Below, in pieces: positions 1,602 through 54,380 of a DNA stretch of 64,000 nt (position 1 is the first letter of the stretch; each line of letters opens with the position of its first letter). The notes beneath the pieces are model-generated. The model was not told where the DNA came from, searched no databases, and saw only the letters and a program-made list of their open reading frames with translations. The position numbers and the translations under genes were made by a program. The stretch comes from Cyanidioschyzon merolae (lineage: Eukaryota), in NCBI GenBank assembly GCA_000091205.1, contig AP006489.2; one strand, written 5' to 3'.

Positions 1602-3284
1602 GCCTTTGTTGAGCTGGAAGCCTCACCAGGAATAGGGCCTCTTGCCCAGGCCGTGCGCGAAAACCTTTGCAGGGCGCAACTCGGTCTGAATATGCCAAGA
1701 CTACGCTTCGGTCGCTGCGGTCGTTGAAACTGCGCAACGTTAAAGCTCCAGACGATTGTAGTCGCGGACATGCGGAGTGTTCCTGGGACATTTTTTCGAG
1801 TACGCATGCATCGGCGAAACACCCAGAAACTCTTATGGATGACCGCGGATACGTGTTGCTGCAGGAATGCTAATCGGGACAAGCGCTTGTTAGCCTATTG
1901 CCGATGCGATGACATCGGTCAGGAGGTCAGGTGCGAGGGACTGGGTGCTTCAAGCACCCGGCATACCGCTTCGGGAAGGTTGGCGAATATTTCCATGCGC
2001 TATTGTTAGTCAATGTTTGTAGCCACGGGGGATATGCTTTTCGTTCTTGTTTCGGGATGAAACACGAACGATTACGAGCGCAGGAGCTTCTAGGCTGGTC
2101 AAGGAAGCATGCAGTGCAAGAACGTTTCGATCGAACTTGTCCTTGGTGTGAATAAGTCGCACGGACGGAGACCCAGAGGGCAGCATGTTCCAGGGTTCCC
2201 GTTTCGGTATGCTCCGACGCCGCAGCTCCTTGTCCAAGTTCAGTGTGAACGGGTTATATATATATGTCTATATCAACATGCGTCACGCCTCTGCCTCGCA
2301 ATACGACGTCACAGAACGCCTGCCGGCGCGTACCCTGGTACTCGATAGACCGTACTCGAAAGAGCGTCACTGACGCGGCCCTATAATACAAAGCAATCAT
2401 ATCACGAATATTCGTATCGTCGTCATATTTTTTCGATCGGACACATCACCCAGAATAGCATACGCATGTCCACGGCCTCGCGGGCCGGGCCGAGCGCCCA
2501 CCGAGCCAGCTCGTAACCGTGGAACAAAGCTCTGGTGCAGCAGTCAGGGTGTAGTCCCATGTTTCCAGTGCTCGCTTGAATGTCCAGACCTGGATATTAA
2601 GGTCGTGCCCGGGCTCATCGCCGTCCTGGGATGTGAGATGGGCTCACCAGTCAGAAACAGGTGCAGGACTAACCAATGAGCGCACGTTCGAGTTCAGCTT
2701 CGGATGGAAACGAATGACAGGCGGGAGACGGCTGGCATATTATGCCCAGCTGCTTGAACATCACGCTACCCACATAGACAGCATCTTTTAGTGTCATGAA
2801 CACAAGCAAATACGCTTCTCCACGCAGCGCGGTCACGATGGGATGCGCAGCCTGTGTCCTTCGGGATCCTGCAACGTACGTACAGCGTATCCAGAAGGGG
2901 CGAATTTCGCGCTGTGAAGACGCAGTGCCGCGGGAGGGGCGTCGCAAGCCCCGGAATCGAATATACCAATTGCCATAATGATCACTAGAACCTGAAAAAC
3001 GCAGGTTGCAGCAACTTCACAGACGACAAGTACGGCATGGCGAGTCTGTTACGCAGAAAGTTTACCGGGTGCCAAAAACGTTCTGATGTGGGCATCAAGC
3101 GCTGGTCCGCAGCGTTCTCCCTGAAGCCGTTGTGGGTTGCAAGACACCCCATGCGCTAATTGGTTCGATTCGAGCTCCCAACTGTCCCTAATTTAGAAAT
3201 CTCACTTCATGAGCACGAGCGCTCGACTTGAGTTCAGGTGCGGCGCTAGCAATCCAGGGAATTTCCTCCAATGTGCGGACCCTA

Positions 3285-9855: not shown

Positions 9856-12492
9856 CTAGAAACGTTCCTGGATAAAGAGGATCGGTTTCTTCGTACCGAG
9901 GCGCTCGGGTTGCCTCTGGACTTTGTGCATGGCCCGTCGAACACTCGCACCAAGGGCTGGATTCCCACAGAAAAAGATGCCTCTTTGTACGTCGTTGGAG
10001 AAGCCAGACACGCGATTGAACTGTTTCACCTGGATAATGTTCCCAAAAAGTCTTTCAAACTCGTACGGATCGCGCAGGTCCAACAAATCCTCGATGAACG
10101 TTTCAAAGCGGGGCCGTCCCTGGTGAAACTGCAGTATCGACTTGGTTGATTGGCCGGCTTCCAGGATGCTCGCAGGAATCTCGCCTCTCGTCAGAAATAT
10201 GTGTACCCGAACGCGCGGAATCAGGTCAGGAGTCCAGGTTTGCGCCAAGTCGAACAGGCCTTGAATACCCCACAGGTCCGCGTATTCGCGCACCACCCAG
10301 ACAAAAGTTAGACTGAACACGTTCGCATACAGACGCTGCTCCTGCTGCTCCTGCTGCTCCTGCTGCTCCTGCTGCTCCTGCTGCTCCTGCTGCTCCTGCT
10401 GCTCCTGCTGCTCCTGCTGCTCCTGCTGCTCCTGCTGCTCCTGCTGCTCCTGCTGCTCCTGCTGCTCCTGCTGCTCTACATGGGAGACCTTATCGTCGGA
10501 TTGGACGCACCGCTGCTGCGCCACAGCTGTCCCAAGACCGTTCCCCCTCCGCGAGAGCAAGGCGCTCGCTTTCCGTCCCAGATGACGCACGCGCCTCAGC
10601 TGGATACGCCACGGCCGCGGCAGATAGAAAATTCTGAGGGTCAGCGCAAACATGATACTTTTGATACAGAAGAGGACGAGGGCGATGATGCGCATCGCAT
10701 TCCCTGCGCCGTCCATATAATGCGACGAGTGTTGTTCGATGCCGAAGAGCGTTGCACCCACGACCAGGTCTGCAACGAGGAGTCCGCAAACACTCAGTGA
10801 TACAAAGCCGCGCGGGGTGCCGACGTAACGCCAGCGAGGCGGATCCAATGTCACCAGCATATCCGACGCAATCGTGAACGAGAAGAGAAAAAGAAGCACT
10901 GCCGAGCTGGTGAAATCCGCAACTAAGGCTACATTGGCATCGAATGCATTTGCGATGACATAAATCGTCAAGCTAATGTACAGCATCCAGAGCAGACTGA
11001 ACAGCCAGAGGCTACTCAATACAAAAGCCCGTAGTCGATCAATTCGCGTTTCCGTTTGGAATATTCCAACGCGCTCTTTCATGTACATCGAAAGGATGCC
11101 AGATTTCCGTATTCGATCCAGCAACTGTGCCGATGTTTCCTGTTTGCTCAGTGTATCGAGAGTCCCGTGCTGCGTTCCGGCCCTGATTCCTCGAATATCA
11201 TCATCGGACGCATCCGCGATGCCGGCCAATTTGGCGGGAGCACGAGCGCTACATATTTCCCGGAGTATGGAGACCATCGGGGTTGCACCAACGCCGCTTC
11301 CGATCAGCAACTGGTAGGGAAAGTGCAGATGGGACTGCGCCGGTGCTCCATACGGGCCTGCCAAGAGCACCCGGTACGCCTCGATTGTCGTCATACATAT
11401 CCGTTCAGGGGCCAAATCGAGGCCGTCCGCCGTTGTTGTCGCTGCTTCTGCCACTGCTGCTTCTGCAAGGCTGTGCAGCCTGCGAGTCCATTTGCCCACT
11501 GCCGCAATGTAGAACGTGATGCGATCCGAGTCGCATGACGGTGCGCTTGCGGCTGTGAACGGATGCCAAGCATCAGCGGGCATACCACACCCTTTGCGCG
11601 TGTCGATGATCATGATCTTGAAATACTGGCCCGGTAGGTAGACCGCGTTCCGTCGTTCAACGGAGAGCTTCACGATATTGGAGTTTGCCTGAGCCAGACT
11701 GAGCACCAGGATGCGCCGAGGAGTTACGGTCGCCCGGGAGAGCTGATACAAGCGGTCGATGATATAGAGGAATACCGGGCCTGCGAAGAAGTACACCGTC
11801 CAGGGCCGGCCGCCTCGCAAGCCGTGAAATACCAGACAGATGTATACCAGGACCGCAATCGGACGGTGCGTCCACCAGAACAGGCGGAACCATTTCCGGC
11901 GTACAGTTTCAACTCCAAAACCGAGCAAAGGAACCAGCAAAACCATGAGCACCACACCTGTGACAAAAAGCATGGTCGCTGGCAGTGCCGCTGGTCCCGT
12001 GAACAAACCGCCACGAAATACGAACACGCTCGCAGCGTAGTTGACGATCTGGGCGATGCCGTGAATCCAGCCGGTTGCGGCAAGTGACGTCCCTACGATG
12101 GTGTGCATGTCGGGTATCCATCGCTCCACACATAGCAGGTCGTAGAGAGGTGTGCGGTACAGAACCGTCGCTAGAGTGCGGTTTATCGTGAGCGGGAGGA
12201 CAAGCGAACAGAATGTGCACGCAAATCCCATGCCCCGTGCGATGGATCCCGCATACCGCAGGATACCACTGGGGCGCAAGTCGACGATAACGTAGCGTAC
12301 CCCGTAAGCAAAGAACCACGACATGGCACAGAAGAACAGGAGAACAATCGAGTACCAAAGCCCGTTTTCAACGAGGTGGATATTCCATATTTGCGTACGT
12401 TCCGTCAGGCTGGGATCGAGATTCGACTCGTTCTGTTTTGCTTTGTTCATCAGTATCGTACGAAAAACGCAGATGGAATAACCACAAGTCAA
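9856..12492 (-). CDS. NADPH oxidase / ferric-reductase family protein (NOX/Rboh-like). A ~330-aa insertion with four predicted TM helices plus a (QEQ)n tract lies inside the NADPH-binding domain.
   Basis: The 878-aa ORF has the ferric-reductase TM domain with His-containing helices. It has the FAD-binding 'HPFTAAS' and the NAD motif 'LLIGSGVGATP'. After the insertion the C-terminal NOX tail is 'FFCGNPALGASVRRA'. The insertion contains 4 hydrophobic helices and the QEQ tract. The reading frame stays open for ~1 kb, so coding is favoured over an intron. Confidence 0.85.
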   Translation of the reverse strand: MTCGYSICVFRTILMNKAKQNESNLDPSLTERTQIWNIHLVENGLWYSIVLLFFCAMSWFFAYGVRYVIVDLRPSGILRYAGSIARGMGFACTFCSLVLPLTINRTLATVLYRTPLYDLLCVERWIPDMHTIVGTSLAATGWIHGIAQIVNYAASVFVFRGGLFTGPAALPATMLFVTGVVLMVLLVPLLGFGVETVRRKWFRLFWWTHRPIAVLVYICLVFHGLRGGRPWTVYFFAGPVFLYIIDRLYQLSRATVTPRRILVLSLAQANSNIVKLSVERRNAVYLPGQYFKIMIIDTRKGCGMPADAWHPFTAASAPSCDSDRITFYIAAVGKWTRRLHSLAEAAVAEAATTTADGLDLAPERICMTTIEAYRVLLAGPYGAPAQSHLHFPYQLLIGSGVGATPMVSILREICSARAPAKLAGIADASDDDIRGIRAGTQHGTLDTLSKQETSAQLLDRIRKSGILSMYMKERVGIFQTETRIDRLRAFVLSSLWLFSLLWMLYISLTIYVIANAFDANVALVADFTSSAVLLFLFSFTIASDMLVTLDPPRWRYVGTPRGFVSLSVCGLLVADLVVGATLFGIEQHSSHYMDGAGNAMRIIALVLFCIKSIMFALTLRIFYLPRPWRIQLRRVRHLGRKASALLSRRGNGLGTAVAQQRCVQSDDKVSHVEQQEQQEQQEQQEQQEQQEQQEQQEQQEQQEQQEQQEQQEQQEQQEQRLYANVFSLTFVWVVREYADLWGIQGLFDLAQTWTPDLIPRVRVHIFLTRGEIPASILEAGQSTKSILQFHQGRPRFETFIEDLLDLRDPYEFERLFGNIIQVKQFNRVSGFSNDVQRGIFFCGNPALGASVRRAMHKVQRQPERLGTKKPILFIQERF
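10335..10476. repeat. In-frame 9-nt microsatellite (CTGCTCCTG)~15.8, encoding (QEQ)n inside the NOX CDS.
   Basis: A perfect 9-bp periodicity is visible over ~142 bp. On the minus strand it translates to QEQQEQQEQ. Confidence 0.9.
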
Positions 12493-14727: not shown

Positions 14728-15079
14728 GAGTCTTCTACGGCTTTCTAGACCTCATTTCGTGTAGCAGGTTCCACGGCATTGCCTACCTCTGGATTTCGGA
14801 AATCATTGTACAAAAAGACACTTTACCCCCATGTCAGAATATCGTAGAAAGGGTCAACAGCGCTAAGTCGGCGAGCAATGCATAGTTTCGGTTTCTTCTC
14901 TCTATCATCAATACTAGCCATTGCGGGGTTTCTCAGCGACAGCTTCCTTTTTTTCCCTCTTGTCTCTGGCTTTAACCAGGTAAGGCTTTCCTTTTCCGTC
15001 AGCTCTATTCTGAGCAGTTGAACGACATGGATGGCATCGTTCAAGTTCAGGTTTCGCGACTTCCAACCGCTGTCGACAC

Positions 15080-15645
15080 GTTTCATGCACAGGCGAAAGT
15101 TGTGATCTACGCTTCGCTTGTCGGTGCCATATTCCTTGGACGCAACTTCGTTGCGCCTCCGTCGGTGATGACATTTGACGTTGGTGAGGTGTTCCTAGAT
15201 GTGCACCACACCTTCTCCTTCGAGGGCAACCCTGTGGTGCATGGACGTTTGCTTCATCACTCGGCACATGCCCTTGACGAGTACAGGAGGCGCCCCGAGT
15301 TCCGTGCTCCTTTTCCGCTCACGGTGCAGAACAATAAGATTTTGGGCTTCTTCTGAGCAATCACCTCAGCGAGTTCGTCGGATGCAGCAAGCGTACGCAT
15401 ACGCCGTTTCATTTGATACAGGATTTGTGGAATGCCATGCTGTCCATGATGAAACAACTACATATAGGATCATCCAGACTAGAGAACAATTCGAGAACAT
15501 TCGATCCGTCTGTTCTCCACTCGTACCGAGCGGTGAAGCACGCTTCATCAAGAGGAATCGCTCGGAAGCGTCAAGTACGAGTCCAAGACCCTTTTCCACG
15601 CAAACAGAAGCGAAGGAAGCCTCTGGGGGCATATACTCGAGTGAG
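15080..15645 (+). repeat. Interspersed repeat family B, copy 1 (~570 bp)
   Basis: This stretch is 75-80% identical at nucleotide level to 21040-21615, 41805-42365 and 53800-54380. Shared blocks include 'tttcatgcacaggc...', 'gcacatgcccttgac', 'caggatttgtggaatgc.atgctgt.catgatgaaacaa' and 'cctctggg.gcata'. ORFs within copies fall in inconsistent frames. Confidence 0.6.
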
Positions 15646-16646
15646 AACATGCTGCACTGGAATGCCGTTTCATTGATGGGCATATAGAGAGGAGTACTCG
15701 TCGTTCGAACGGAATCGATTATATGACGTGACGAGTTCAATGAACTCTCGGCATGAATTTGTGAACAATTCGCCTGATGACGACGTCGAGTTTTTCCCTT
15801 GCTAACCCGGCGATGATGTTGCCCGCACCTACGTGTTGCCGCGAAGCAGAAACATAGAGAACCTAAAGAATGCGGGAACTGGCATGCCAGCCTGTAGCAA
15901 GAAAGAGACGTCGCGACCTCTACATGTGAATAAGCTACTGGTATCGATCAATTTATGAAACCATGTTTGATAGCGGTGCGAATTATCATGATTCTGATGA
16001 TGGAACGAATGCCAGCGGAAAATTGCCGAGGGAGCCTCTCAGGGAAGGCGATTGGAAACCCAGAAGCTACATAGAAACCGCAAGCCCTCATCGATGCACT
16101 TTGATTGCACGGGCTGTTCATATTCAAACAGCTGCTGAAAATTTGGAAAGAAAGGAGCACGGCGAGCAGCTCACTTGTCCATTTTCATATGACATAGGTG
16201 TATGATCAAAACCCACCACTGAAAGACGAGTGATTCCGTTTCAGGAACCTCGCTCATGCGACCGACGCCAGCAAGCTCGCTCGCCCGAAGGCCAGTCTCG
16301 ATCCGGATGACAGGCGTCTCGAGGCGAACCCAAATTTGGCGACGCCCGCTCGATCCACCAGGGCCGACGTGCACGCATGCTCGCCGCTGCTGTACACGTG
16401 TCCCGCACGAGGTGACGCGAGCCAGGGATCCAATCGCCACGCGCATGCCGCGTAGCACCCGTGGATGCGAGGCCCTGCGCTGCTCCGGTCCCGAGCGGGC
16501 AAAAGATCATGGTATGGCTGCTGCTTGGATACGCGTTGAGCTGTAGCAATATCGTTCCGCTTCTTTCGCTCAAATTTTTCAGGTCTCAACGAAAAAGTCT
16601 TCAGTAGAGCTCCGAAGATAAAACGCCAAATTGCGGAAGCAGTCGT

Positions 16647-17258
16647 ATGTATGCAGGAATGCGTCTTAGAGTTGTCGCATTGCTCTTGATGCTCGTCACA
16701 TATCTGTGCGTTCCGAGTGCTGCGCTCGGTGTTGCCGCTGAGGATACGATTCAGGGCTCGCGTACCGTTCTCCGTGCTGCACCGGGCACAGAGTTTCGGA
16801 TTGGTGGCCCTGTCACGATCCAAAACATGACGATCGCTGCAAACTATCTCGTTGGAATCGAGGTGGCGCCAATGCCCCCGGGCATGCCAGATCCAGCGGC
16901 ACAAAATGTTGTGCATTTGGAGGCTGATGTGCACGCCACATCCACGAATCCCTGGGGATTCCCCAATGGATCCTGGATCCCGTACCTGAGCATTGTCTAC
17001 ACGATCAGCAAAGAGGGATCATCCTGGAGCGCCCGGGGTGTTCTCAGCCCTATGACTGCAGATGATGGCCCGCACTACGCCGACAGTCTGACACTTGCGG
17101 GTCCGGGTCGCTATGCGCTCATATACAAGCTCATTCCACCGCAAGTGAATGGTTTTCTAAGACACGTTGATCACGCGACTGGTGTGCCCGACTGGTGGAC
17201 GCCCTTCGAGGTGCCGTTCAACTTCACGTATCCGGTTGAAACAGCGTCAGCATCTTAA
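16647..17258 (+). CDS. Secreted P19/Ftp-family Fe2+ transport (Fe/Cu-binding) protein homolog, the periplasmic partner of FTR1 permeases in bacteria.
   Basis: The 203-aa ORF starts with a signal peptide, 'MRLRVVALLLMLVTYLCVPSAALG'. The motif 'HLEAD' (H-x-E-x-D) is followed by a Met exactly 46 residues after the His ('SPMTADDGPHY'). A His lies 7 residues after that Met, and a distal 'RHVDH' follows. This reproduces the remembered Cu/Fe ligand spacing of Campylobacter P19 (H42, E44, D46, M88, H95, H132). Confidence 0.75.
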   Translation: MYAGMRLRVVALLLMLVTYLCVPSAALGVAAEDTIQGSRTVLRAAPGTEFRIGGPVTIQNMTIAANYLVGIEVAPMPPGMPDPAAQNVVHLEADVHATSTNPWGFPNGSWIPYLSIVYTISKEGSSWSARGVLSPMTADDGPHYADSLTLAGPGRYALIYKLIPPQVNGFLRHVDHATGVPDWWTPFEVPFNFTYPVETASAS

Positions 17259-18124: not shown

Positions 18125-18330
18125 GCGGCACACGGCAATGTCAACATCCCTTGAGCCGACGCCCTCTGTGGTACGGCAACGCCGTTGTGTCTCCGTGCAG
18201 CGACCGCACCGGTGCTATAGGCGCTATTGCTGTCGCTTTCGGCAGGCTCGGCACTCGATAGGACGTATGTAGCGACCAGAATATCCGAGACGAGGTATAG
18301 GTAATGTATCTTGGAGGTAGGGCGTTTGAT
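18125..18330 (-). repeat. Interspersed repeat family A, copy in reverse orientation
   Basis: The reverse complement aligns over ~140 bp with 35335-35480. The conserved core is 'aacggcgttgccgt.cca.agag.gcgtcggctc.a', and '...tgccgtgt' also matches. Confidence 0.55.
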
Positions 18331-20578: not shown

Positions 20579-21039
20579 AACGCACTGCATCGTTTCATGC
20601 GTGTTGAAAACGCTCTGAGGAGCATTGGCATCAGGCATCTGGCTTACGTATCCCAGAATACATGCATCGTCTACGAAATCGACCTGGCGTCATGGAGTGT
20701 CCATCGAACTCGCGGCAGTCCAGTGTGCTGGATCCAGGAAGAAATGCATAGCACCAGGTCGAGAAGCTGTTGTTGTTGTTGTTGACATCAATCTGAGTCC
20801 ATGTCAGAGTGAAATGTACGAGGTCCTCTATTTCGGTCGTACGCAATAATGTTGGGGTCTATTCACGCTGTCATGAACACCAGACACTGTAGTATTTTTC
20901 TGCGGCTGCTTCGCGTATCTCGCTCCTTTATTCGGCTTTAAAAACGCTGGTCTCGCCTGTCCTTTCAGCTTCGTTCTGAACAGTCGAAGGATGTCAATGG
21001 CAGGATTACAATCCGGATTTTACAGTTTGCGGCTGCTGT

Positions 21040-21615
21040 TGACGCATTTCATTAACAGACAAAAATTGCTATTGACGCTTCGCTTGTTATTGTCATCCTC
21101 TTCGTATCCACCCTCGGTACGCCCTTCGATGCATTGACACACGACTATGATGCGTTTTTTTCGTATGTGTGTACGGAACCTCTCCTCCTCGAACGCTACG
21201 CTGTGAAACGTGGACGCTTCGTGTATCGCTCGAAACATGCGCTTGGCGGATACAGAAGGCCCTCATCGATACCATCCGTCGTTTTTGCACCTGGTGCTGT
21301 GTCCTACGATCATAGGCTTCTTCTGAGAAATGCCCTCGGCGAGTACGCTGTCCGCCGCTCACGCAAGCACGCGCTGTTCCATTCGACAGAGGATCTGTGG
21401 AACGCGAGATTGTCCATGAAAGGAAAATTACCCTATGGAAAATCCACACTGGAGATCAAACCGAGAAATATCGATTCGTCTACGCGACCCACTTGCAAAA
21501 AAAGTACCGCGTTATCCACTGGTAGCGATTACTGCGATGGCTCAAGTCCGAGTCCATGGCCCTTTACGATGCGGACGGGCGACAAAGAGCCCTCTGGGAG
21601 CATATCCCATCATAT
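21040..21615 (+). repeat. Interspersed repeat family B, copy 2
   Basis: Nucleotide similarity to 15080-15645 and 41805-42365. Matching blocks include 'gacgcttcgcttg', 'tgatcataggcttcttctgagaaatgccctcggcgagtacgc' and 'gaggatctgtggaacgcgagattgtccatgaaagg'. The same orientation holds for all copies. Confidence 0.6.
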
Positions 21616-23274
21616 GGATCATGCTCACGTCGAATGCATTCTCGATGATACTCCCATAGAGGCGAGGATTTGGCATTCGAACGGAATCCATTCTTTAAAG
21701 TTGCGTATTCAGCAATCGCTCGGCATGGGCTCGTAAAGAAGTCGTCGAGGGGCGACGTCGAGATTCTTTCCTCGTCAATCCACTGGCGCGAATTGCAACG
21801 TGTATGATTAGTTAATGAAAAGAAAAATCGAGTTATTGAAGTATGCGTGATTTGAGCATGTTCGCTGTCAGGAACTGGGAGGCGTGCAGGTTAGCGCATA
21901 TAAACTGGATAGTCGTATCTGCCGCTTTACGAACCATTGTTCGAGGGCTTCGCGAATGTTCTTCACTCCGGTGAGATAACGCATTCCATTGGTGACATGT
22001 TTTAGGCACTTCTACGGAGCGAAGACCAAGAATCCTCAACAGTACTTACGGACCCGTAAACCCATATTGGAGTACTTCGATTGTCGAGGCTGTATATCTT
22101 GAGGAAAAATCACCCGGAAAAATAATCGAGATACAAGAAGCGAGCGATCAGTCTAGTGTTCCATTTTACTCTGACACGGGTGTCGTACCCTGCGACTTTT
22201 CTGATGACTGAGATTTCGGTGACTGCTCGCGAAAACGCGTCCGATTTCAGGGCAACTAGACATATCTTCGGAGTAAATCGAAGCCGCAGGCTATGGTCGA
22301 CTAGCGAGAACAGTCTCGTGCGTCACGCACGTGATAGACACCGGGGAATGACCGAAAACCAGAGGCGCTTCCGTGCCCGCTGCTCCCTCGCTGGATGAAG
22401 TCCATGCAAAATCCTGCTTCCAAAGCAAAACCTTTGACAACAGATATGCATCTCAACCTCTTTCTTCTGAGTTTCCGGATTTCACACTGCTTATTGCTGG
22501 GTCACAAAGCGCTCTGCCAACTTCTTTCCCTCAAACGCCATCGTCCGCACCAAGGCCACACAAGTTCGCTCGTACCGATTCCGGCCTGTTCTCGACATGC
22601 CTCGTTCTTCCTCATCGGTACCGAGCTTAAAATTCGTTGCCTGTAGCACCGTCTTCATGTCTGCGGAAACAGTTCCTCGGGTTGCGAGGCAGTGTGAGCG
22701 CCCATGGCCTGCATTCAAGTCAAACCGAATGCATTATCCAAGTACGATGTACGCATGCGTTTCATGCTCATGTGCGCTATGCTTGACCGATCCCCGGGAC
22801 GCTTTAGTTTTTGAACCATCCTGGAGACGCTATGACGCCAGGCGATTCCCGCTGCAACCCTGGGACGACGGTTACCAAGTCCCGTCTCGTGGCCACTACA
22901 GAGGCTGCGGGCTCTACGAAGCCAATTCTCACTGCTGTGCGGTGTGTGAAACAATCTTTGCTTCGGTCCAGTGTCGCTCGAGTAGTTCTCTGCCGCCATT
23001 GGACCTATTTATGCGATCGAAAGTCCGTACCGAACCGGATTTGTTTTGCACGGAAAGCGCCGGTCTTGAGGTAAGTTTACCGTCCTGATGCTGTCCTCAT
23101 TTCCTGGGTCGCAGCTGCAGAACAACCCCGAAAAGCACATGTCTCTCTCTTTAGCGAGCCGTGAACGCTCTAAACTTGTCCATTAAAGCAAGAGTAGCTC
23201 GAACCGGTCAAACGTACATCCCAACAGTGCAAGCGCGACGCAATGCATAGGCGAGCCGCTGGCTGCTAGGTAGC

Positions 23275-28402: not shown

Positions 28403-29287
28403 GCGAATGCATCGTCTCCGGTATGGAACGGCGCTGGTTCTGTGAATAACGCGTCAGACAGCGTCTGCAGCGGGGCTCACTGCCGACACCCTCCAGCATG
28501 CCGTACTGTTACGCGGTCGCTAGCGCAACGCCAGCAGCTGTGCGCCTGTGTCACCGAGACTTTTAGGTTCCATAAACAATCCACGCGCACTGGACACGGG
28601 ATTGCGCGAGAAAGACTTGAACTGAGTAACCATCTGTTTGAGCCTCGGTTCGGAAGGAGACGATCCACGCGCCGCTCGACTCTGATAGGCAATATGACCG
28701 TAATAGGCATCTCCATTAGGCTTTACGTCCAGATGAAACGAGGGCACGAACCGAGGTACGCCTGCCGGACTCGCTATTGTTCTTCTATACGACACACAAG
28801 CCTGCTTGTCATTCCTCGTCGAGGCATACCGCTTCGGGAGCACACACATAGAGTGACACACAGATGCCTGAGATGGATCCATGTCTGGGGGTTTGGCGGC
28901 TCGCGGTATCATTGGTGAAGCAACGACGGATCGACGACATCGCCTGCCACCGCGACTGCCGTGACCCAGGCGCGAGCCGGTGACCCAGGAGAGCGCCTGC
29001 TCGACACATGGCCCGGCTTCGGGTGCGAGCGGGAGCTCGATTGGAGGCTTCTGTCACTGGTACGCATCATTGCTTTGCTTGTTAGCCGCTTTTCCTGGGG
29101 TGTACGATGAATGCGTCTGATCGGGTTCCCCAGGATGTTTTTGTTTTTGCGCGCCGACGATTACCCGGAAATGTACCGCCGATAAAGCGACACACAACGC
29201 CTCCAGCGCTGAAAACGCACCCTTTGGCATCATACTGCACCCCAAGAGCTGATGCATGCGCTCTCTGGAAAACGCATGCCTAAAGTG

Positions 29288-29425
29288 CTGCACGATATTC
29301 ATGGTATCGAGATGTATGAACGCTCGATCATCGTTCTGCATGATATTCATGGTGTCGAGATTTATGAACGCTTGATCATCGTTCTGCACGATATCCATGG
29401 CGTCGAGTAGCACGAGCGCTTGCGT
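29288..29425. repeat. 48-bp minisatellite, ~2.8 copies
   Basis: 'ctgcacgatattcatggtatcgagatgtatgaacgctcgatcatcgtt' is repeated with a few substitutions (copy starts about 29288, 29336, 29384). Confidence 0.6.
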
Positions 29426-30111
29426 GCCGCATGCTGCTACCGCACTGGGGGCTATGGATGTGCGTAGACGCCAGGTGGAGTTTCAGCGAATGCCTCCATG
29501 CCCATTGTAGGGAGTATCGGGCGAGGACTCTGGCCAGCCCGGCTCGTTCAGGTCGCTGGACAGTCCCGGTGCGCTGCCAATGTGCTCAAGTGGCTCGCTA
29601 CGCGCCTTCCCATAAGATGTCGTCCGGCCGTGTACCGCCTCAACGCACAGCGACTTGATCACTGAGCACAGAACGTTTCATGGCTGGGTGTCGGCGTTGC
29701 GTCCGCGTCGTCTACGGACGCCAGATCGTTTCTGACTCGTGATCGCGGACGAGTATGCAGTGCCCACTACAAAATCGTTTATCAGAATGTCTCTCTCTAT
29801 ATATTTCCAGAATTACGGTTGCCAAGGGTCGCCAGCTCGACGGTAAAGATACTGTCTGAGCCGACCCCTTCGCAGTAGTTTTATTCACACGTCGGTTATA
29901 AACATAAAAGCGTCATCACGTGAGCTGCCTTGAGCTGAATCCAAGTAGCATCGCACAGCAAGCGCTTTGCTTGGATAATTTCGAATGCACCGCTGGGGGG
30001 AGTAGTGCTCGTTGCGCGCTCCGCGTAGGTTCACGCAACAACGCATGCGCGACAAGCGCTTTCCGCAGCCGGACTCTGCAAACGTGCAGAAACGGTGCCG
30101 AAGAGGCGCAC

Positions 30112-33318: not shown

Positions 33319-35334
33319 ACAGCCAAGGAGAGACAGAGAGAGGGTTTCGTGATCTGTGCTCGGTTCGTACGCCGAGCGTATTCAGGTTTTGCACGTGCAC
33401 TGGTGCGCATGGCTAGCCGCATACGCGAACAGCCTAGGGTGCAGGTGGCGAGTGCGCACTGCCCCGAAAGCAGATATGCATAAACCCAGCGCCCGTGCGC
33501 TGGTGTCGTTCCTGGTGATACCTTGAATCGGGTTGTGGTCTGGTTCGCACGAGCGTCCTGTTACAAAAGCCGATCAGCGTGATTCGAGGCCAAAGATGGA
33601 CCCACCGGAAATCTTCCAGATATACGAAGGCAGCTTTGCGGCACCGTGCCTTGGGTTATACGGGGGTTTACCACCAAGCATGTTCGTACTTTGCGCGGTC
33701 TGCTTCCGAGACCTGTCTCCGATGAGCAGCACAGCACGCCATCAGCAAGCTGTGCTCCAAGCGATGCTCTCGCTCATTTGCTCGCTTCGTTAAGCGCCGA
33801 GTGAGCGCGCTGTCATCCGGCAACATGAGACGGTGGATCCAAGACGGTGCACGCTTGGCGCTCTCTCACAGAATCCACACGACAACTGCAGAGATTCTCA
33901 AGTCGTCTGGCTGAATCCGATGCTTCGCACACGCCCATCCAACCGCATATTGCCGATGTTGACGCGCTCCTCGCTATAACCCGTCTGAAACGAATACGAG
34001 AGGCACCTCAAACGTCAGATGGGCGGCAGCAGTGTACGTTCCAAACTGTGATGCGTATCGTTCATCACTTTCCCTAAAAATACATCCTGCAACTTTTTGG
34101 ACACCTCATACGACCGAGCAGCGAATCTCTCTCCGCATCTCGTGCCAACGTGCACCGTCATTCATACCGCTGCGAGACGGCAGCGTGACTGACTTCCTGA
34201 CACCGCCGGCTCCGATCCAAGGCCTCTGTCACGCGGCTGGGACACGACCAGTGGAACGACCGCCCCTTCGCCCATGGCGCTGCTGGGGCCGCAGCCTTCC
34301 ACTTTTCCCGCCAGACGCACGAAAACGTCCCGCGCACTGAAAACGAGCGCGCCATCGGCCATGCGACGCCGAAGATCGGATATGCGCAGCTCCAGCTGCA
34401 GCTGCGTCCTTGCGACTCCATCGCTTGGATCGGGGCGAGAGGCGCAGCGCTCGGAAACCTCGCGAACAAGTCGGCTCTCGGGGGCTTGCAAGCTCAAGAC
34501 CAAACGATACGCTAGATGCGAGTCTGGAAGAAACGCGAGGCCGCACGATACCAGCTCGCCCAGTACGAAGAGCATGTCGAAGCTTTCCAAAGCCGTGCTG
34601 AGGAACTTTTGACCAAGATCGACAGCAGGTTAGAGAGACTGTGTGAGCGCCTGGAGAAAGTAGAAGAAAAGTGTTGCCAACTCGTCGGAATCAATCCCCA
34701 GCAGAGGGCAGGAGAAAAGTAGGCTGCGTCAACGCCGCACGAGAGCACCGGGCTGGCGTTACCGTTAACGAGAGGCAGGCACGACACGCGAAGCGCTGCG
34801 ACAGCGCGGTGCGTGCCTCGGCCTCATGACGAGCTCAAAGACTGAATCCAGTCCTGAACAGGGTCTCCCGTCGACGCGGCTCGGTCTTCGGACCTGGACA
34901 GCTGTTCCCGTAAAGCCTGCAGCTCAGCTGCCTGACGCTGAAGCTCCGCCTCGAGCTTCCTCCGCGCGTTGCGCTCCCGCTGCGCGTTCATAGAACTACC
35001 AGCCAAATAGCCGATAAAAACTGCACCCACTCGCGCAAAGTTCAAAAGACTCGTATACGACGCCGTGGCACCAGCTGAACCAACAGTTCCGGAAACCATT
35101 CCTGTCTTCTCAGTGCAGTATACCCGTTCCGGGTAGACAGAACGACGCGGATTCGCTGACGGCGAGCAGTGCGCGACTCTACCGATCCACTTTTTTCTTA
35201 ATTTGATCAAATGTTCATAGAGGCCAGCGTTCCCCAGCTGTGCGCTTTGTATCCGCGCGCGGTCATTCATCCATCGATCCACGTCCTACTTCCAAGTTCC
35301 ATACCTCATTCTTCTTCTCGGATATACTCGTCGT

Positions 35335-35480
35335 TTGATCTGCTCTATCGAGCGCCGAGCACCTGCCCTGATCGTCTGCGACAGCGCCTGTACCGTTGGT
35401 ACGGATGCAGCTCGGCAACAGAACGGCGTTGCCGTGCCAGAGAGAGCGTCGGCTCGACAGGTTAAACGAATGCCGTGTCA
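35335..35480 (+). repeat. Interspersed repeat family A, copy with conserved ~140-bp core
   Basis: It shares 'cctgatcgtc.gc.a...gcctgtaccgttggtacggat.cagc.cgg' with 53545-53700 and 'aacggcgttgccgtgccagagagagcgtcggctcgacagg...tgccgtgtcacgg' with 18125-18330. Confidence 0.55.
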
Positions 35481-36844
35481 CGGAGGCCTCCCATTCTTGT
35501 TGGACCGGCCACCCTTCCAATGGTTTCAGCTTCTCCTTGTGCATAACGGCTCTGAGAGGCTGCCCCACAAAGTTCGCTCGTGTCTGCTCCGCGGATCACG
35601 TCTTCAGTACCACACATCGTCCGATATGGATGGCGGCATTGAAGTCTCGGTTCACGGATTCTATGCGTTTATTGCCTCTGATTGAACAGATCCTTTCAAG
35701 GCGTCGTTGAACGCTCGCCCCCTGTTCGATTTGGTGCTCTATCAGCTATTCAAACTTTCCGATCGCCGAGGCGCTTCGCAGCCTTCCCACCGTCTCGATC
35801 TTCAGTATTGTACGCCTCTGCTGAATCTTTCGATTTTTTACTTTTGAAAATGGATGCACTACTTTGTACCCTTTTAAGTGAGGGCCTTCTCGGGGCGAGA
35901 AGGACTTGCGGAAGAAAGACGAGATGTGCTGCCTTGTGTTACGCTGTGTTGAAAACTTCATCAATTCGCCCAGAGCAGCGATCGCTACGTTTCACGATAG
36001 AGAGCACTCTTTCGATGCGGCTCAACAATGGACAGTACGGAGGAATGAAGAGCAGCTCTACCCGATAGACCCGGCAAAAGCTCGAACGCAAGCGGAAATA
36101 TCAAATGCAACGTTGTCCAAAGGAAGGACGTGGCAAGACCTTGAGAAGAAAATTTTCAAGGATTCAGTGGAGTAGATCGTGGCGTTGTATGAGCTTGCTG
36201 TACGGGCGAAACTGAGACCGTCGAAAGAATCCACTGCATCTATACTAGATAATGATGTCGTCGTTCTCTTCGAGTTCGATCTTAGATACAACGGGTTCCC
36301 TGTACGCGAATACCCAGATACGCTCCGATTGTTTCATCAGAAGCAAGTCTCACCGACTGGAAAAACAAACCGGCGTCCCTGTGCTTCATACGGATCGGAA
36401 CGTTCCAGGAACGCTGTCGCTGCGATTCCGATGGAAGATAGCCTTGCACGAACCAGGGCATTTTGGGAATGTATCACGGTGTTTTTGCGATCATATGAAC
36501 GAGCTGGCGAGAAAAATACATACAGGTAATGGCTATTGTCATCGCTCTCGCCTTCCGAAAAAAAGGGGTTCAAAGGGTCATTCTCTACCATTGACCTCAG
36601 GAAGTATCTGAAAATATCGGTTTCTTTTGGCGCGAAGCGCAGAATACTTGTTTCTTTCTGTGTTCTTCAACGATCTGAGCTCTGTGGACTGGCCGACTGA
36701 CCTGCATGAGGAAACCAGCCCTCCATACACTATTTAGAAAAGAACATATATCCTACAGGCAGTTCGTCGACGATCTATAGGGTACGCTGCATCGTGATAC
36801 CGATCTCCTGCAACATACCGCAACAGGGGTGAAACACAACTGGA

Positions 36845-38314
36845 TTGAAAAGCCAGAAAGTCCTGCTGCCGACCTGGCCTGGGCTGGGCATCTGCCCGTC
36901 GGCGATTATCCGGACAGCACCGAAAGCGCTCCGCCTGGTTACGCTAACCGAGGTGTTTTTGGGCTTTTCGGTTGCCGCTGAGCGAGGTTCGCCCATAACC
37001 AACCTGCACTGCTGCACCAGTGGCATGCGTCGTCTGGAGCAGAGCGAAGTGCAGGCTAGCACAGGAAGCGATCACGTTTCGCTGGTCTCTTTTCTGGCAC
37101 TGCAAGCACTCCTATACGCTACCGCCCTCAGCGGTGTTCTGGTGCCTTGCTTGGGCAACGACAGCGACACTGAGGTTGGGCAAGTGTCCAGCGCCGCCTG
37201 CGAGGAATTCGGCCCGCAAGCCGACCCCAGACTGAGACTCGCAGTAGCGCGGAGGACGCAGCGGCCCCAAGCGGCTCGGCGTTCGTGGAAACACGTTTTC
37301 GAGGACTGGGGTCGCGGCGTTGCCGCTGGGGTGCTCCTATCCGCAGCGCTGGTGCATATCCTCCCGTCCAGTGCTGTGCAGCTCGAAGATAACCTAGCCA
37401 CTGCGTACGGAATGGAACGCAGCACTGCTGTTTCTCTGTTGGGAACCTGTTTCCTCGTAGGCGTGCTGGGTGTCTACTGCATCGACTTGAGAGCGCGACG
37501 CGCTGCCGACGCACCCAGATTGCCAAGTCCGTTATGCGTAGACGCTCGAGCGCCACATCCTTGGGGCGATTGTTCGCAGCGACCGGCACCATCCGAGCGA
37601 GTGGATTCTGGACATCCGCTTTCCCAGCTCGAAGCACACCCTGCATCGACAAGCGCTGCATTGCAACGTTCACAGCCTGCAACTGCCGAGCACCATCTGC
37701 GGCCAATCTGGAAAATCCTGCTCTGCTCGCTGTCCTTTCACGCCCTATCAGAGGGTATGGCGCTTGGCTTGTCCGTGTATCGCACGTTCGTCGCGATGTA
37801 CCTTGCGATTATTTTGCATAAATTTTTCGCGGGGCTCGCGCTTGGCGTATCGCTTGCCAGCGCAAGAGAGCCAATGGCGCGTTGTCTCAGGGCTGGAGCG
37901 CTTTTCGCAGCGGCAACGCCATGTGCCGCTACCCTAGCGAGGCTGTCAGCGCACTGGAGTCAGTTGGACAGCGCCCGCTCGGGAGGAGCAGTCCGAATCG
38001 TAGGCGGCCTCCTGAATGGAATTGCTGCCGGGAGTTTCCTAGCGATCAGTTTACTCGAAATCATACCTTGTCCGAGGAATTCTGCTGAAGCTAGCCAAGT
38101 GGCGCCATGGATTGGAAAATCGCACGAAAATGCCATGGATTGGTACCGGGGAACGCCCGGCTATGAGACGCTAACGACAGCGGATTCATGTGCAACCCTG
38201 AATGCTGGCGTAGATACGGCTGCAGATCCAATGGCAGCGATGTCGAGTCGACAAACGCTCGTTCCGTTGCTTTTTAGTGCGGCTACATTCTCGCTGCTTG
38301 CGCTGTGGATTTGA
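36845..38314 (+). CDS. ZIP-family zinc/iron transporter. The true start may be a downstream Met.
   Basis: ZIP signature helices are present: 'AGVLLSAALVHILPS' and 'HALSEGMALGLS...ILHKFFAGLALGVSLA' (HxxxE / H-K/R-xxxG-LALG). There are multiple TM segments and a His-containing variable loop. Confidence 0.75.
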   Translation: MKSQKVLLPTWPGLGICPSAIIRTAPKALRLVTLTEVFLGFSVAAERGSPITNLHCCTSGMRRLEQSEVQASTGSDHVSLVSFLALQALLYATALSGVLVPCLGNDSDTEVGQVSSAACEEFGPQADPRLRLAVARRTQRPQAARRSWKHVFEDWGRGVAAGVLLSAALVHILPSSAVQLEDNLATAYGMERSTAVSLLGTCFLVGVLGVYCIDLRARRAADAPRLPSPLCVDARAPHPWGDCSQRPAPSERVDSGHPLSQLEAHPASTSAALQRSQPATAEHHLRPIWKILLCSLSFHALSEGMALGLSVYRTFVAMYLAIILHKFFAGLALGVSLASAREPMARCLRAGALFAAATPCAATLARLSAHWSQLDSARSGGAVRIVGGLLNGIAAGSFLAISLLEIIPCPRNSAEASQVAPWIGKSHENAMDWYRGTPGYETLTTADSCATLNAGVDTAADPMAAMSSRQTLVPLLFSAATFSLLALWI

Positions 38315-40554: not shown

Positions 40555-41804
40555 CTAGTCAGGCGGGTAGGCAGTCTGCCTGAATACGTTCGTACGTATG
40601 GGTGTCGCGCGCGACTCGAGAAAGTAACGACAGCAGGTAGAGGCGCGCGTGGATACTCCGCCAAGCTCCGACGTGAGACACGGGGGCTGGTTGCTCTCAT
40701 ATGCACGTTGAGGGTGCCTATGCTTTGAATGCACGTAGTTGTAGGTGTGTCTGCTTTCCAGGGAAAAACTGTGCAGGAATATGGGCGAACGGATGCAGTG
40801 TCTGCATAGAAAAACGAAAGCGTTGAGCAGTACGCGTTTGTTTTTCATAGTAGCTATCGGAAAATCGACGCTTCGTTGCTTGATCCCTGAACAAATCAGC
40901 AGAAAGGTTGCAATGAGAAGTCTATCTTGCCGGCAGCAAGTCTCGAGCAGGCATCCTGGCAAGCTGGCTGGTTCCCGATCTAGCGAAATCAATACCACGA
41001 AAACGAGCTGCTTCCGGTGTCGGTGCACTGTGCTCGCGGTGCCTCTACTACGTCGTGTCGCGACTTGTGCCGCTGGAGCGTGAACTCTGCCGCAGAACGA
41101 TACGCAGCGCGAACAACAAAGCACGCTGTTGCTGTGGAGCTGTCGCAGCTCCTGCTGACAGCATCAGGCTGCGTAACCTGGTAGAGTCTCGTTCGGTGCA
41201 TCGATCTCGTTTGGCGTACCCGACGGACTACACGAATCAGGGAATCGCTGAACCATACGCAATGGTTATTGGCATCTGGGAGAGCGTCCATTATGCTGCA
41301 GGAGACTTGCAAGCTCCACTGGGTACCAGCCATAATTCCATGCGGATATCATGGTCGATTCAAATGGTCTAATAGGTGCTGAGCTCACCGTACGCGCTCA
41401 CTACCAAGTCTGTGGATGCATGGATCCTGTGCAGTTGATAAAGCATCCACGTTCGAAACCGATACTTGGTACGATGGTAGACAGTTCTTTCATGCCAGCT
41501 GGGCGTGCTGCAGGACGGTGCATGTGCTCGCTGCTCATCCTCCAATGCTCGACATGCACTCTTGTGAGAATTAAAAATGAAACAAGTCCATGAGCACGGG
41601 GCGTGCAAGTCTAACCTGGGATCTATCTCTGCTATCAGCAATACCAGCGTTTGCGGGCTTTTTCGAAGACGACTTTGTCTCTCTGATCTCCGGATTTGAA
41701 CACGTTGGTGTGCCTGCTTTTCGCCCAGCTCCGCTGCGGGCAGTCGAATGAAGTTGACAGCAGCTTTCAAGTCCCGAAATCAAAGCGCCAAGCTGTGATT
41801 CAAG

Positions 41805-42365
41805 CATTTCATGCACAGGCAAGCGTTCCGATTTGCGCTCGGCATGCCAGATTCATACTTTTTTTGTGTATGGCCTCGATGCGCACTTCGTAGCGGTGAC
41901 GCTCGGCACGGGTATGGTAAGGGGTTTCCATGTAAGAAATGTGCTTTCACCTGCGGGCGGTGCACGACGGTGCATGAACGCCTGCCTCATGGCTCGGTAC
42001 ATGCCCTTGACAGGCGTACAAGGCTTTCCTCGATACTCGGCTCGGTTTCCGCCCCGGTGCACCGCACCCTATGATCACAGGCTTTTTCTGGGCGATCCCC
42101 TTGTCAAGGACGCGGTCCGCCGCACGCGCAAGCTGTTCTGTTCGATACAGGATTTGCGGAATGCGATGCTGTTCATAATGAAACAAGTACCGGAACGAAA
42201 CTCCATCTTGGAGAACAAGTCGCGCAGCATCGATTCGTTTGCGTTGCTTTCGTACAAAGCGGTGGTGTACGCTCTACTGGAAGTGATCGCTGCGATGACA
42301 GGTGCCCGAGTCGAACACCCTTCCCGACGCAAAAGATAGAGATGCAGACGCTATGGAGCATGCTC
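41805..42365 (+). repeat. Interspersed repeat family B, copy 3
   Basis: It aligns with 15080-15645 across ~560 bp. Matching blocks are 'catttcatgcacaggcaagcgtt', 'ggtacatgcccttgacagg', 'tgatcacaggctttttctgggcgat' and 'caggatttgcggaatgcgatgctgttcataatgaaacaag'. Confidence 0.6.
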
Positions 42366-43093
42366 CGCGATAGGTAGCATACTGCCGTAAAGTACCGAAT
42401 CATCAACGGCTGCAGAGAGAGACAGCATGATTTGTCTATCGAATAAAGTCGGTTATTTAACGGAACAAGTTCAGTAACGTTTTTGCATGAGCCTGCGACA
42501 AAGGATTCTGGGAGATTCTTTGGGGGGTTTCGTTCCCCCAGCAACCCAGCGGCATGCTCAGTTGCGCCGCCGAGTTGCCTCAAAAGATAGTCGTATAGAA
42601 AACCTGAAGCAGTTGTGATATGGGCATGGTACACGTAAGGAAAGGAGCAGCGTGGACTATCTTACACACGAATTGGATAAAGATATCGCGTACCTTACGA
42701 AGCTTTGCTCAAGATCGTCTCAAACCATCTTGACTCCTGGAATGTCATGAATTCCAGTGGTAAAGCATCGAAGGAGCAACGCTGAAAACGCGATCAAGAA
42801 CCCTAACGCTGCGTGTGAGTCCGTGAACCCCCATTGCTGCCATTCGAATGCCACGGCTATCTATCTACACAAATTTTCGGAAAATAATCGAAAGCCTGGA
42901 AGAGAGCACCCAGTACCGTATTCCGAAATGTTCTGACATGGGCGTGCGACACAGCTTCCGCCAATTTTGAGAAGCGCGCTCCGTGAGCCGCGCCAGGTAT
43001 TCGAATACTTTAGACGTAGACAGCGTCTTGGTACCAGCATCCATAAGAGATGCTGTTTGGCAGCTACTGGAGCCCAGTGTGTGGCTGGTTTGA

Positions 43094-49425: not shown

Positions 49426-50029
49426 CCTCGCGAATGGAGTCTAGAGTGGGTATCGTCGAAAAATACAAGTCTATGATCGTTGACGAATTGCCCACGACAA
49501 TCGTTACCAGTAGAAAGAGGTAGAGAGAGAGCTATGCGGCGCGTCAGGCTTGCTCAGTCGCTGAACCCCTCCATACCAGTCCTTTGATCAACGCGAGCAT
49601 CCAGAGCGGTATCTCCTGGTCACCGAGTTTTTGCATCGGAATGCAGCTGCGTTTCAGTACAATGGCCGCACAGAGTGCGAAACGAGTCTCGTTCAAGTTC
49701 GCTCGACACGAAACCGCTGGACGCGACTGAAGCGCAGGACATTTCCGGGTATCGATCGCTGCATGCAAGTAGCGGTTCGGAAAGTGCATGCCCTGCTGGG
49801 TACTGGTGGCATCGCAACACAGCAAGTGTCACCACCAGGTCGATAGTCGCGCCATCTGATGTTGCATCAGTTACCCGATGTACGATCTTGTGAGTCTGGC
49901 TCTGTTTCACGCGCCTCTACGCTGCCGGATTCAACAGGCACCTGTGCTCGCGATACACGTACTTTGTCCTTATTCATTCGCGAAACTCGCATAGATCCGA
50001 TTGCTGGACTCGGTGTATGCTCCTGTCGA
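49426..50029 (+). repeat. ~600-bp dispersed direct repeat, copy 1. It is >98% identical to 57071-57672.
   Basis: The identical ORF translations listed at 49544..49825/57188..57469 and 49620..49910/57264..57554 reflect near-identical DNA. Boundaries were read from where flanks diverge (start 'cgcgaatggagtctagag', end 'ctcctgtcgat'). Confidence 0.8.
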
Positions 50030-50533
50030 TAAAGTCGATGTACTCCGTGTGCGGCGCCCGAAAAGCACACCGAGCCTTGGGCGCAATGCCTTGCTGCTTA
50101 GCCCTCTTGCTTCTGCTTGTAAGGCTGCTATGAAACTTGGAACTCTGTGTCCAACCCGCAACGAAGACCCGTGCTACTATGCCACGCACCTAGAACCAAG
50201 ACTGTTCCAGTGCAGCCTGGGGGTATCTTCGTGCTACTGAGACGCTACCGACAGTGCGTGCGTTCACTTCGCGGCCTCTGCTGGACGCTAGTGCCAGACA
50301 GTCGAGGCTGACTGCGACTCAAGTGCAGTTATGCAGTTCGCTTATCGGGCTCTATGCTCTACACGAGACGCAGCGTCTACAGCACGTTGCAGTCGCGACA
50401 CGCACGCGTGCTTGAAAAGCACCGGTGGCTTCTTCTCTGGTCGCCCTTGTCACGCGCGCTTGCGGAAGCTTGATTTAAGGACACATCGCGCACAGCATAC
50501 AAGAGCACGCTGTACGTCCTCGCACGAAAACCG

Positions 50534-53204: not shown

Positions 53205-53544
53205 GGGTTACGCACGCGAGCTTTCCACGTTCAAGGGGTAAACCGTGTACGCCAAGCAGCGCAGAGGGCGGCATCTAAGCGAGTCGCGGCGAGGCCGCGA
53301 GCGGCGACCGCATCTTCCTCATGCTGTACCTTACGCACTTTTAGGGATATATCTGGACTTCATTGGCCTGTCCGATGCGTGCGCGCCTATTTTTGTCCAT
53401 TTTGATGCAATGCTGACCAAGCCAGCGTTCTCTGACCCGGTGCTCGGTATTCGCACGCGGTGGAGCATTCGTGATTCCAGGGCCCGCTTCCAAGTCCCAG
53501 AACCCATCCTTCATCCCGTATACACAGGTTGCTTCATTCGTTCG

Positions 53545-53700
53545 ATCGCTTGCCCAGCGTCTCCCCTGATCGTCCGCAATACTGCCTGTACCGTTGGTAC
53601 GGATACAGCACGGATGCAGTACGGCGTTGCTGTGGTAAACGAGGGCTTCGGGCTCGAGGTTTGCCTCAGACGACACTGAATCAGGGCTCGTCGCCAGTTT
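53545..53700 (+). repeat. Interspersed repeat family A, copy 3. It lies directly upstream of a family B copy, forming a composite.
   Basis: It shares 'cccctgatcgtccgcaatactgcctgtaccgttggtacggatacagcacgg...cggcgttgc' with 35335-35480. Confidence 0.5.
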
Positions 53701-53799: not shown

Positions 53800-54380
53800 G
53801 TGATCGTTCATGGAATGCACGATCGTTTAGCGACGCGGGCTATTGCTAGGCACCCACCAGTGGGTAGGCGCAGAAAGCGCACTGGGCCCGTGTGCGCATC
53901 CGATTCGCTGGACCTTTTGCCCAGAGGGTGGCTTGGGCGCGAATGTCCGCCAGGCCGCCGCCTGTCTGTGGCGCACGAACGCTTGCTTCATCGGTCGGTG
54001 CATGCGACGGGCGTATGCAAAGGGTTACACCCTGGATGCTCCTCTCGGTTTGCGCATCCGGTGCTGTACTCTGCGATCATGGGCCTCTTCTGGGCGATTG
54101 CCTCGGCGAGTGCTCTGTCTGCTGTAAACACAAGCGCAAGCGGTTTTACTAGATAGCGGTTATGTTGCATGGGATTTCATATTCTTGATGAAACAGGTAC
54201 CGGGAGGAAAATCCAGGCTGGAGCAGAAGTCGAGAAATGTCGATCTGCCAATGCTCCTTTCGTCCAAATAAGCGACGCCCTGGACATGGAAGCGATCGCC
54301 ACGATGGCTGAATTCCGAGTCCGAGGCCTTTTTCCAGGCACACAGAAGAGACGGAACCCCCTGGGGGCATAGTCCATAAG
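53800..54380 (+). repeat. Interspersed repeat family B, copy 4 (the most diverged)
   Basis: It carries blocks from the other copies: 'gcttcatcggtcggtgcatgc', 'gatcatgggcctcttctgggcgattgcctcggcgagtgc', 'gatgaaacagg' and the terminal 'ccctgggggcatagtcc'. Confidence 0.5.

Follow-up and report, generated by a model that had tools for sequence, protein, structure and literature searches.

Fanzor1 genes are known inside mariner elements with terminal inverted repeats (TIRs) of 24-33 bp and TA duplications, namely PUl-1, PUl-2 and PUl-4 of Pythium ultimum and PGv-1 of Phaeocystis globosa virus (Bao & Jurka 2013, PMC3627910). The same study gives the Fanzor motif as D-X(125,275)-[TS][TS]-X-X-C4-X(5,50)-RD, describes CMe-1A, an old Fanzor1 family of the red alga Cyanidioschyzon merolae (3169 bp, about 150 copies, no TIRs), together with TE-N2_CMe (635 bp), and also lists Fanzor1 in WSSV. 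Nozaki et al. 2007 reported from C. merolae a 3.2-kb interspersed repeat of 253 copies, with a truncated ORF weakly similar to WSV486 of WSSV, and only 26 retrotransposons and eight 'transposase-related' elements. Taking the two descriptions together, CMe-1A is probably the WSV486-like repeat of Nozaki et al.

We analysed a 64,000-nucleotide stretch of chromosome 7 of the C. merolae 10D nuclear genome (contig AP006489.2; hereafter the window), which holds four copies of an interspersed repeat, family B. A first-pass annotation had described these as four diverged copies of ~570 bp in the same orientation, and their number, places and common orientation were borne out by self-BLAST (E 1e-15 to 1e-33) and by an nhmmer profile of the family, which found exactly these four in the window, all on the plus strand of the model, and nothing else. 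The proposed size was too small, as flank-extended alignments carry the homology to about 1.33-1.39 kb in copies 1-3 and ~1.0 kb in copy 4. The proposed identity of 75-80% was likewise too high: pairwise values are about 54-60% across the unit, and 64-69% is reached only within the BLAST cores. Our analysis indicates that family B is very probably a decayed, internally deleted, non-autonomous mariner-type class II (cut-and-paste) transposon that once carried Fanzor1.

Three of the copies are full length: copy 1 at 14826-16200 (1375 bp, nhmmer profile positions 2-1331), copy 2 at 20796-22182 (1387 bp) and copy 3 at 41557-42944 (1388 bp), each delimited by nhmmer and TIR anchors and showing 76%, 74% and 74% identity, respectively, to a ten-copy consensus. 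Copy 4, at about 53936-54959, matches profile positions 331-1322 only. It is truncated by ~340 bp at its low-coordinate end, which is the 3' end of the element in ORF orientation, and has thereby lost the zinc ribbon, RuvC-III and one TIR; its high-coordinate end is a degenerate TIR. On its left it adjoins a CMe-1A/TE-N2_CMe fragment (CMe-1A positions 90-286 at window 53489-53689). The probability that four copies share an orientation by chance is 1/8, and a metagenome contig that carries two further copies has them in opposite orientations.

Natural translations of the single window copies gave no Pfam match. In a majority consensus of the four copies long frames re-open and codon-usage periodicity appears; this consensus found nothing in Pfam, in the PDB (phmmer) or in a search of 5.8 billion proteins. 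Within one block the copies vary mainly at the third codon positions of the minus-strand sequence E-[VGA]-I-[AS]-Q-K-[KR]-P, and a pattern built from this seed block, deliberately excluding the four window copies, was used to scan metagenome DNA. The scan returned 38 loci, two of which (L026 and L038) are real and represent new copies; the other 36 were chance matches in unrelated samples. With the resulting six-copy consensus, pseudo-ORFs of further copies were recognised in the protein database, and their contigs gave four more copies. The final alignment comprises ten copies, four from the window and six from C. merolae-like metagenome contigs, and its majority consensus, on which all domain assignments below rest, regains an open frame of 357 codons.

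A later profile search brought the total to 15 protein clusters, so that the copies clearly number more than ten, and one copy adjoins CYME_CMR222C of C. merolae 10D, whose CMR tag points to chromosome 18. The family thus has at least six copies beyond the window, and its termini are defined: the full-length copies have both boundaries in common. Truncation is seen in two copies, copy 4 and the metagenomic copy c6. A common structure uniting these two with their neighbouring CMe-1A fragments was considered and dropped, as the arrangements differ.

The 5' part of the consensus, read on the minus strand as …FGVAPSTLCRW…SRQLVGAAIRAAGLTRKK…VAIDETAFDSSMIPLMGYAPRGFRLF…VIAAIASSGACVTALHEGSVDGSKFLDLFSSLDFPSGTCFIMDNIAFHKS, matches the DDE_3 catalytic domain of IS630/Tc1-mariner transposases (PF13358, E=1.7e-8, 34.9 bits against a cut-off of 28.6). 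The match covers positions 3-101 of the 146 profile positions, and the consensus lacks the part that would hold the third catalytic residue. By consensus mapping this remnant occupies 15397-15683 in copy 1, with the first-Asp motif at 15660-15680 and the second-Asp motif at 15427-15450, and its equivalents lie at 21367-21655, 42132-42413 and 54134-54420 in copies 2, 3 and 4, all on the minus strand. Upstream of DDE_3, the consensus resembles a winged helix-turn-helix (PF13592 HTH_33, E=8.6e-4) with a score of 19.3 bits, which is under the cut-off of 25; the corresponding minus-strand segments are 15756-15897 (copy 1), 21728-21871 (copy 2), 42490-42639 (copy 3) and 54496-54641 (copy 4). The mariner transposase of PUl-1 is collinear with the remnant and scores 28.5 bits, against a maximum of 22.3 in shuffles.

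The DDE_3 homology lies in frame 2, which has two internal stops, while the fully open frame of the 5' half is frame 1; we take this mismatch to be incidental. A frame-2 'YSP…P' stretch was considered as a third DDE motif and rejected, the same bases in frame 1 being 41% identical to the metagenomic protein P0052 described below.

Two sequence blocks singled out in the first-pass annotation find their explanation in this remnant. The conserved block caggatttgtggaatgc…atgaaacaag encodes the minus-strand second-Asp motif C-F-I-M-D-x-x-A-F-H-K-S. The block cctctggg.gcata, thought to be terminal, is internal and is the reverse complement of the Y-A-P-R-G codons of the transposase. The B-box-like ttcgatcc is also located inside the transposase remnant and lends no support to a pol III reading.

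The 3' part of the consensus reads, in one frame that differs from that of the 5' part, …QRALARAADSVLAEGIAQKKPMIVGYGTGRGNGGGHRGEPSAPVKGMYRAMKQ…LT(T/I)VK(C/Y)HRCEG…FRLCMKCVD…RNRDLNAAINILRLL… on the minus strand. Its sole Pfam match is the TNB zinc ribbon of TnpB/Cas12f (PF07282), with E=5.1e-5 and 2.3e-3 in two independent consensus builds; the scores of 18.5-23.8 bits are under the curated cut-off of 26.3. A natural pseudo-ORF of another copy (P0055) matches the same family at E=4e-4. The zinc finger followed by RD that Bao & Jurka included in their motif is present, as T(T/I)xK(C/Y)HRC…CMKC…RNRDLNAAINI. An intact metagenomic protein, P0052, has 41% identity to the consensus 3' part (116 bits) and carries the motifs GLDPG…TTLKCHRC…CEHC…RNRDFNAAINI; it satisfies the full Fanzor motif and aligns with the Fanzor1 protein of CMe-1 across 321 residues. 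P0052 comes from a 'BRINE' contig of JGI sample 3300000575 (L053:376-1632); it has 418 aa and is apparently intact, with a possibly incomplete N-terminus, and P0051 and P0057 are close relatives of it.

The C-terminal ends of the Fanzor1 proteins CRe-4, CMe-1 and CRe-1 are collinear with the consensus as well, scoring 29-37 bits where 300 shuffled queries reached 27.3 at most. PDB searches with later consensus builds, a 16-row profile and P0052 returned no TnpB or Fanzor chain, and an AlphaFold2 model of P0052 from a 14-row alignment (pLDDT 55, pTM 0.33) was too poor for fold comparison. In copy 1 the Fanzor1/TnpB-like C-terminal remnant lies at 14931-15424, as placed by consensus mapping, PF07282 and the similarity to P0052, and includes the zinc-ribbon/TNB part at 15024-15248 and a decayed RD.NAA.N motif at 15024-15056. 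Consensus mapping places the equivalents at 20897-21394 in copy 2, 41661-42153 in copy 3 and, in part, 53936-54161 in copy 4, again all on the minus strand. At about 15192-15194, within copy 1, some natural strains have a Trp codon in place of the stop in the Fanzor frame (HIWEHL in pseudo-ORF P0046, HI*EHL in copy 1), a polymorphism within a dead element.

Homology to P0052 begins at consensus residue 178, and the DNA upstream of that point is the DDE_3 remnant in the other frame; transposase homology ends just past the second-Asp motif and Fanzor homology starts within about 30 bases. RuvC-I, an Asp expected 125-275 residues upstream of the zinc finger, is absent, and the Fanzor part is accordingly a C-terminal fragment only. 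From this junction it follows that the family unit is a fusion from which the final third of the DDE domain and most of Fanzor1, on its N-terminal side, are missing.

Both ends of the family carry the same sequence in inverted orientation, ~20 bp of the form CNCC-CRTGTCAGAGTRAAA…, as seen in the six full-length copies that have flanks, and this terminal motif is common to all 12 of their ends. In copy 1 the TIRs, located by terminal alignment and end complementarity, are at 14826-14848 (CCCC CATGTCAGAATATCG…) and 16178-16200 (…TTTTCATATGACATAGGTG), and in copy 2 both ends match CRTGTCAGARTRAAA with no mismatch. The ends of a single copy are complementary at 16/30 positions in copy 1, 18/30 in copy 2 and 13/30 in copy 3, against 7.6±2.4 for random 30-mers (P(>=17)=3e-4). 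TA borders copy 1 at either end (14824-14825 and 16201-16202; ...ttTA| and |TAtg), TG borders copy 3 at either end, and copy 2 lies between TG and TC. An exact TA is found at 4 of the 12 ends and most others are one substitution away, a call that is blurred by site decay of ~25%. Judged from sequence, these flanks would be compatible with the TA target duplication of Tc1/mariner elements, and are not proof of it.

The earlier suggestion of a non-autonomous transposon holds in the broad sense, and its SINE-like form does not: ARAGORN found no tRNA, Rfam gave no match, and the unit of 1.37 kb has TIRs and no tail. Family B is not autonomous, as the transposase is truncated even in the consensus and every copy contains frameshifts and stops in all six frames. 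The parent would have been a mariner-type element with a Fanzor1 gene downstream of the transposase, from which an internal deletion presumably took out the final part of the transposase and the bulk of Fanzor1. The minus-strand fusion so formed would have joined the N-terminal two thirds of the transposase (HTH plus first and second Asp motifs) to the C-terminal third of Fanzor1. This non-autonomous derivative may then have spread in one burst, moved in trans by way of its TIRs and with TA target duplication at insertion, after which the copies would have decayed neutrally to ~74% identity with the consensus. No full-length parent element was seen, and the deletion-derivative history is to that extent inferred.

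The pattern of divergence fits such a course. Pairwise identity is uniform at 56-62% among the ten copies, each of which is 73-76% identical to the consensus, and this star-like pattern argues for a single burst followed by neutral decay, which also explains the missing codon periodicity between copies. For each pair of copies and each sub-window, mismatches fall equally on the three codon phases, 75-85% of the indels between copies are not multiples of three, and codon-usage scores are negative in all frames of the copies, whereas the genes of the window score positive. A live ORF was sought in the copies by six-frame tblastn between copies, mismatch phase, indel spectrum, stop counts and codon-usage scores, and none was found; the sole coding hint in single copies is that copy 1 has one frame depleted in stops (P≈0.0015). 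Transitions and transversions stand at ~1:1, an unremarkable ratio with respect to a RIP-like mutation bias. The earlier verdict that the element is probably non-coding is therefore right for the present copies, in view of their stops in all six frames, and wrong for their origin, as the consensus encodes two protein fragments.

We saw no sign of present coding capacity and no evident function in the copies. The alternative that fares best is that they have been exapted, as a long non-coding or guide-like RNA family (ωRNA-like, from the Fanzor 3' end) or as a module with a chromatin or regulatory role that is retained for its length, and we consider this quite unlikely. The full-length copies are of near-equal length, copies 1 and 2 differing by 16 gap columns per 1286 aligned bases; so few indels against ~40% mismatch are a possible hint of length constraint, at a divergence where aligners under-call indels. 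C. merolae repeats have moreover been reported as transcribed and H3K27me3-marked. Polymorphism was assessed in seven metagenome contigs ~99% identical to the window. Copies 1 and 2 have 14.6 segregating sites per kb, genes have 6.6 and the remaining intergenic DNA has 19.4; the copies hold 39 SNPs where about 52 would be expected from other intergenic DNA. This slightly reduced density, together with the scarce indels, leaves exaptation a small probability. However, the density is still more than twice that of genes, and 14.6 against 19.4 SNPs per kb means that the copies evolve nearly at the rate of other intergenic DNA. Two copies are truncated, the divergence is uniform and star-like, and conserved islands are limited to the former protein motifs. 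The proposal of a diverged ncRNA gene family finds no backing in Rfam either, the scan being null at gathering thresholds for the window and at E<=1 for copy 1.

We also considered whether the copies are fragments of the known 253-copy 'WSV486-like' repeat of Nozaki et al. 2007, taken as CMe-1A/TE-N2_CMe, and used for this comparison the CMe-1A consensus and CMe-1 protein from the supplement of Bao & Jurka 2013 (PMC3627910). The two families share a genome and a protein superfamily, both being Fanzor1-derived; both are old and comparably decayed, CMe-1A copies being ~80% identical to their own consensus, and CMe-1A fragments adjoin copy 4 and the metagenomic copy c6. At the DNA level, however, there is no similarity: BLASTN of the 3169-bp CMe-1A consensus against the family B consensus gave a best match of 36 nt at E=0.04. 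CMe-1A encodes a 734-aa Fanzor1, and the encoded Fanzor parts are only ~25% identical in their common region. Furthermore, CMe-1A was reported to have neither TIRs nor a transposase, whereas family B has both, and within the window CMe-1A matches another repeat, 'family A', instead. We regard a derivation from CMe-1A as very improbable, and judged by its sequence family B is distinct from it. Fragments of the CMe-1A 5' region (~84-286; 69-79% identity), presumably 'family A', occur at 18145-18321 (minus strand), 35285-35457 (plus) and 53489-53689 (plus), and a CMe-1A 3' fragment (positions 2816-3081) at 35483-35746 (minus) adjoins one 'family A' copy. The eight elements that Nozaki et al. 2007 called 'bacterial-transposase-like' may be better-preserved relatives of family B.

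Equally improbable, in our estimation, is an origin by segmental duplication instead of transposition, with the copies as pseudogenes of some host gene family. Four copies in one orientation inside 40 kb would suit such an origin, but similarity between copies stops sharply at common boundaries, beyond which their flanks are unrelated, TIRs and a transposase domain are present, and copies occur on other chromosomes and in both orientations. That the copies are live, spliced or unusual protein-coding genes is scarcely credible: each has open stretches of 100-226 codons, but these fall in different frames from copy to copy, as first noticed, codon scores are negative everywhere, substitutions are without periodicity, and a spliced gene model cannot explain the repeats because C. 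merolae is almost intron-free, only about 0.5% of its genes being interrupted by introns.

Four window proteins are matched exactly by the C. merolae 10D proteins BAM79610, BAM79614, BAM79621 and BAM79622, and the window proteins span BAM79610-79622; long ORFs encode common eukaryotic and plastid-related proteins, among them proteasome RPN5, Utp21, ferredoxin-dependent bilin reductase, Fe2+ transport protein p19, ZIP, a ferric reductase and others. By protein accession order, no annotated protein gene lies in the gap around copy 2 or in that around copy 3. Copy 1 is positioned in a divergent gap with a GNAT acetyltransferase gene on one side and the p19 gene on the other, and a long coding-like ORF was looked for in that gap and none was found. 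The gaps are probably unannotated because the copies are too decayed for domain searches.

Several other features of the window were recorded. A metal-uptake trio lies within 30 kb: ferric reductase (9856-12492), Fe2+ transport protein p19 (16647-17258) and a ZIP transporter (36845-38314). The minus-strand ferric-reductase-like ORF of 878 codons contains a perfect 9-bp repeat, (GCTGCTCCT)n, at 10335-10476, and the alignments of metagenome contigs break exactly there, which suggests length polymorphism. A direct duplication of 602 bp (49429-50030 and 57073-57674; 99.3% identity, 7.6 kb apart) is far younger than every other repeat of the window. Directly after copy 4, three 187-bp tandem units that are 95-99% identical (54990-55579) reach into the start of the ferredoxin-dependent bilin reductase ORF (55540-56526). 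Shorter tandem repeats occur at 63218-63543 (166 bp, two units at 93%) and 29285-29428 (48 bp, three units at 69-90%).

The four copies of family B account for 5.2 kb of the 64-kb window, about 8%, yet they are invisible to single-copy domain searches. The genome of C. merolae is regarded as among the simplest of any eukaryote. Its content is stated as 0.7% transposons plus the one 'WSV486-like' repeat, and our finding suggests that old transposon fossils are under-counted in it. Relics of this kind may account for some of its 'unannotated' intergenic DNA or chromatin peaks. Family B adds a red-algal example to the association of mariner elements with Fanzor1, which bears on the spread of RNA-guided nuclease genes in eukaryotes; otherwise nothing sets it apart from other dead transposons, and no function is indicated. 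More speculatively, and with a low probability in our view, family B could represent a second, previously unlisted C. merolae Fanzor1 lineage captured by a mariner/IS630 element, whose amplified deletion derivative kept the Fanzor 3' end beside one TIR. If this were true, it would fit a cis-requirement for the Fanzor 3'/guide-RNA region in mobilisation, or a later exaptation, for example as H3K27me3-bound or transcribed modules in a very compact genome.

As a decayed mariner-type transposon with a Fanzor1 remnant, family B is best compared with PUl-1, PUl-2, PUl-4 and PGv-1, and by this comparison its architecture would be one already described, in Pythium and in an algal virus. In all of these a DDE transposase stands upstream of Fanzor1 on the same strand, between short TIRs (24-33 bp in PUl/PGv-1, ~20 bp in family B); the TIRs of family B have no sequence similarity to those of the PUl/PGv-1 elements. 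The TA target duplication of the PUl/PGv-1 elements is, among the window copies of family B, intact at copy 1 only. Family B further differs from them in its red-algal host, in that all its copies are dead and in that only a deletion derivative of 1.37 kb is seen. With MITE-like derivatives of IS630/Tc1-mariner elements it shares retained TIRs, truncated coding sequence and an apparent single trans-mobilised burst, but it exceeds typical MITEs in length and has parts of two different genes fused in its interior. Finally, like bacterial TnpB of IS200/IS605 and IS607 and like OMEGA/Cas12f, it has a C-terminal zinc ribbon followed by the RuvC-III motif 'RD.NAA.NI' (PF07282); in contrast to TnpB/Cas12f, RuvC-I is not kept, and, unlike IS200/IS605, the element combines its nuclease remnant with TIRs and a DDE transposase.
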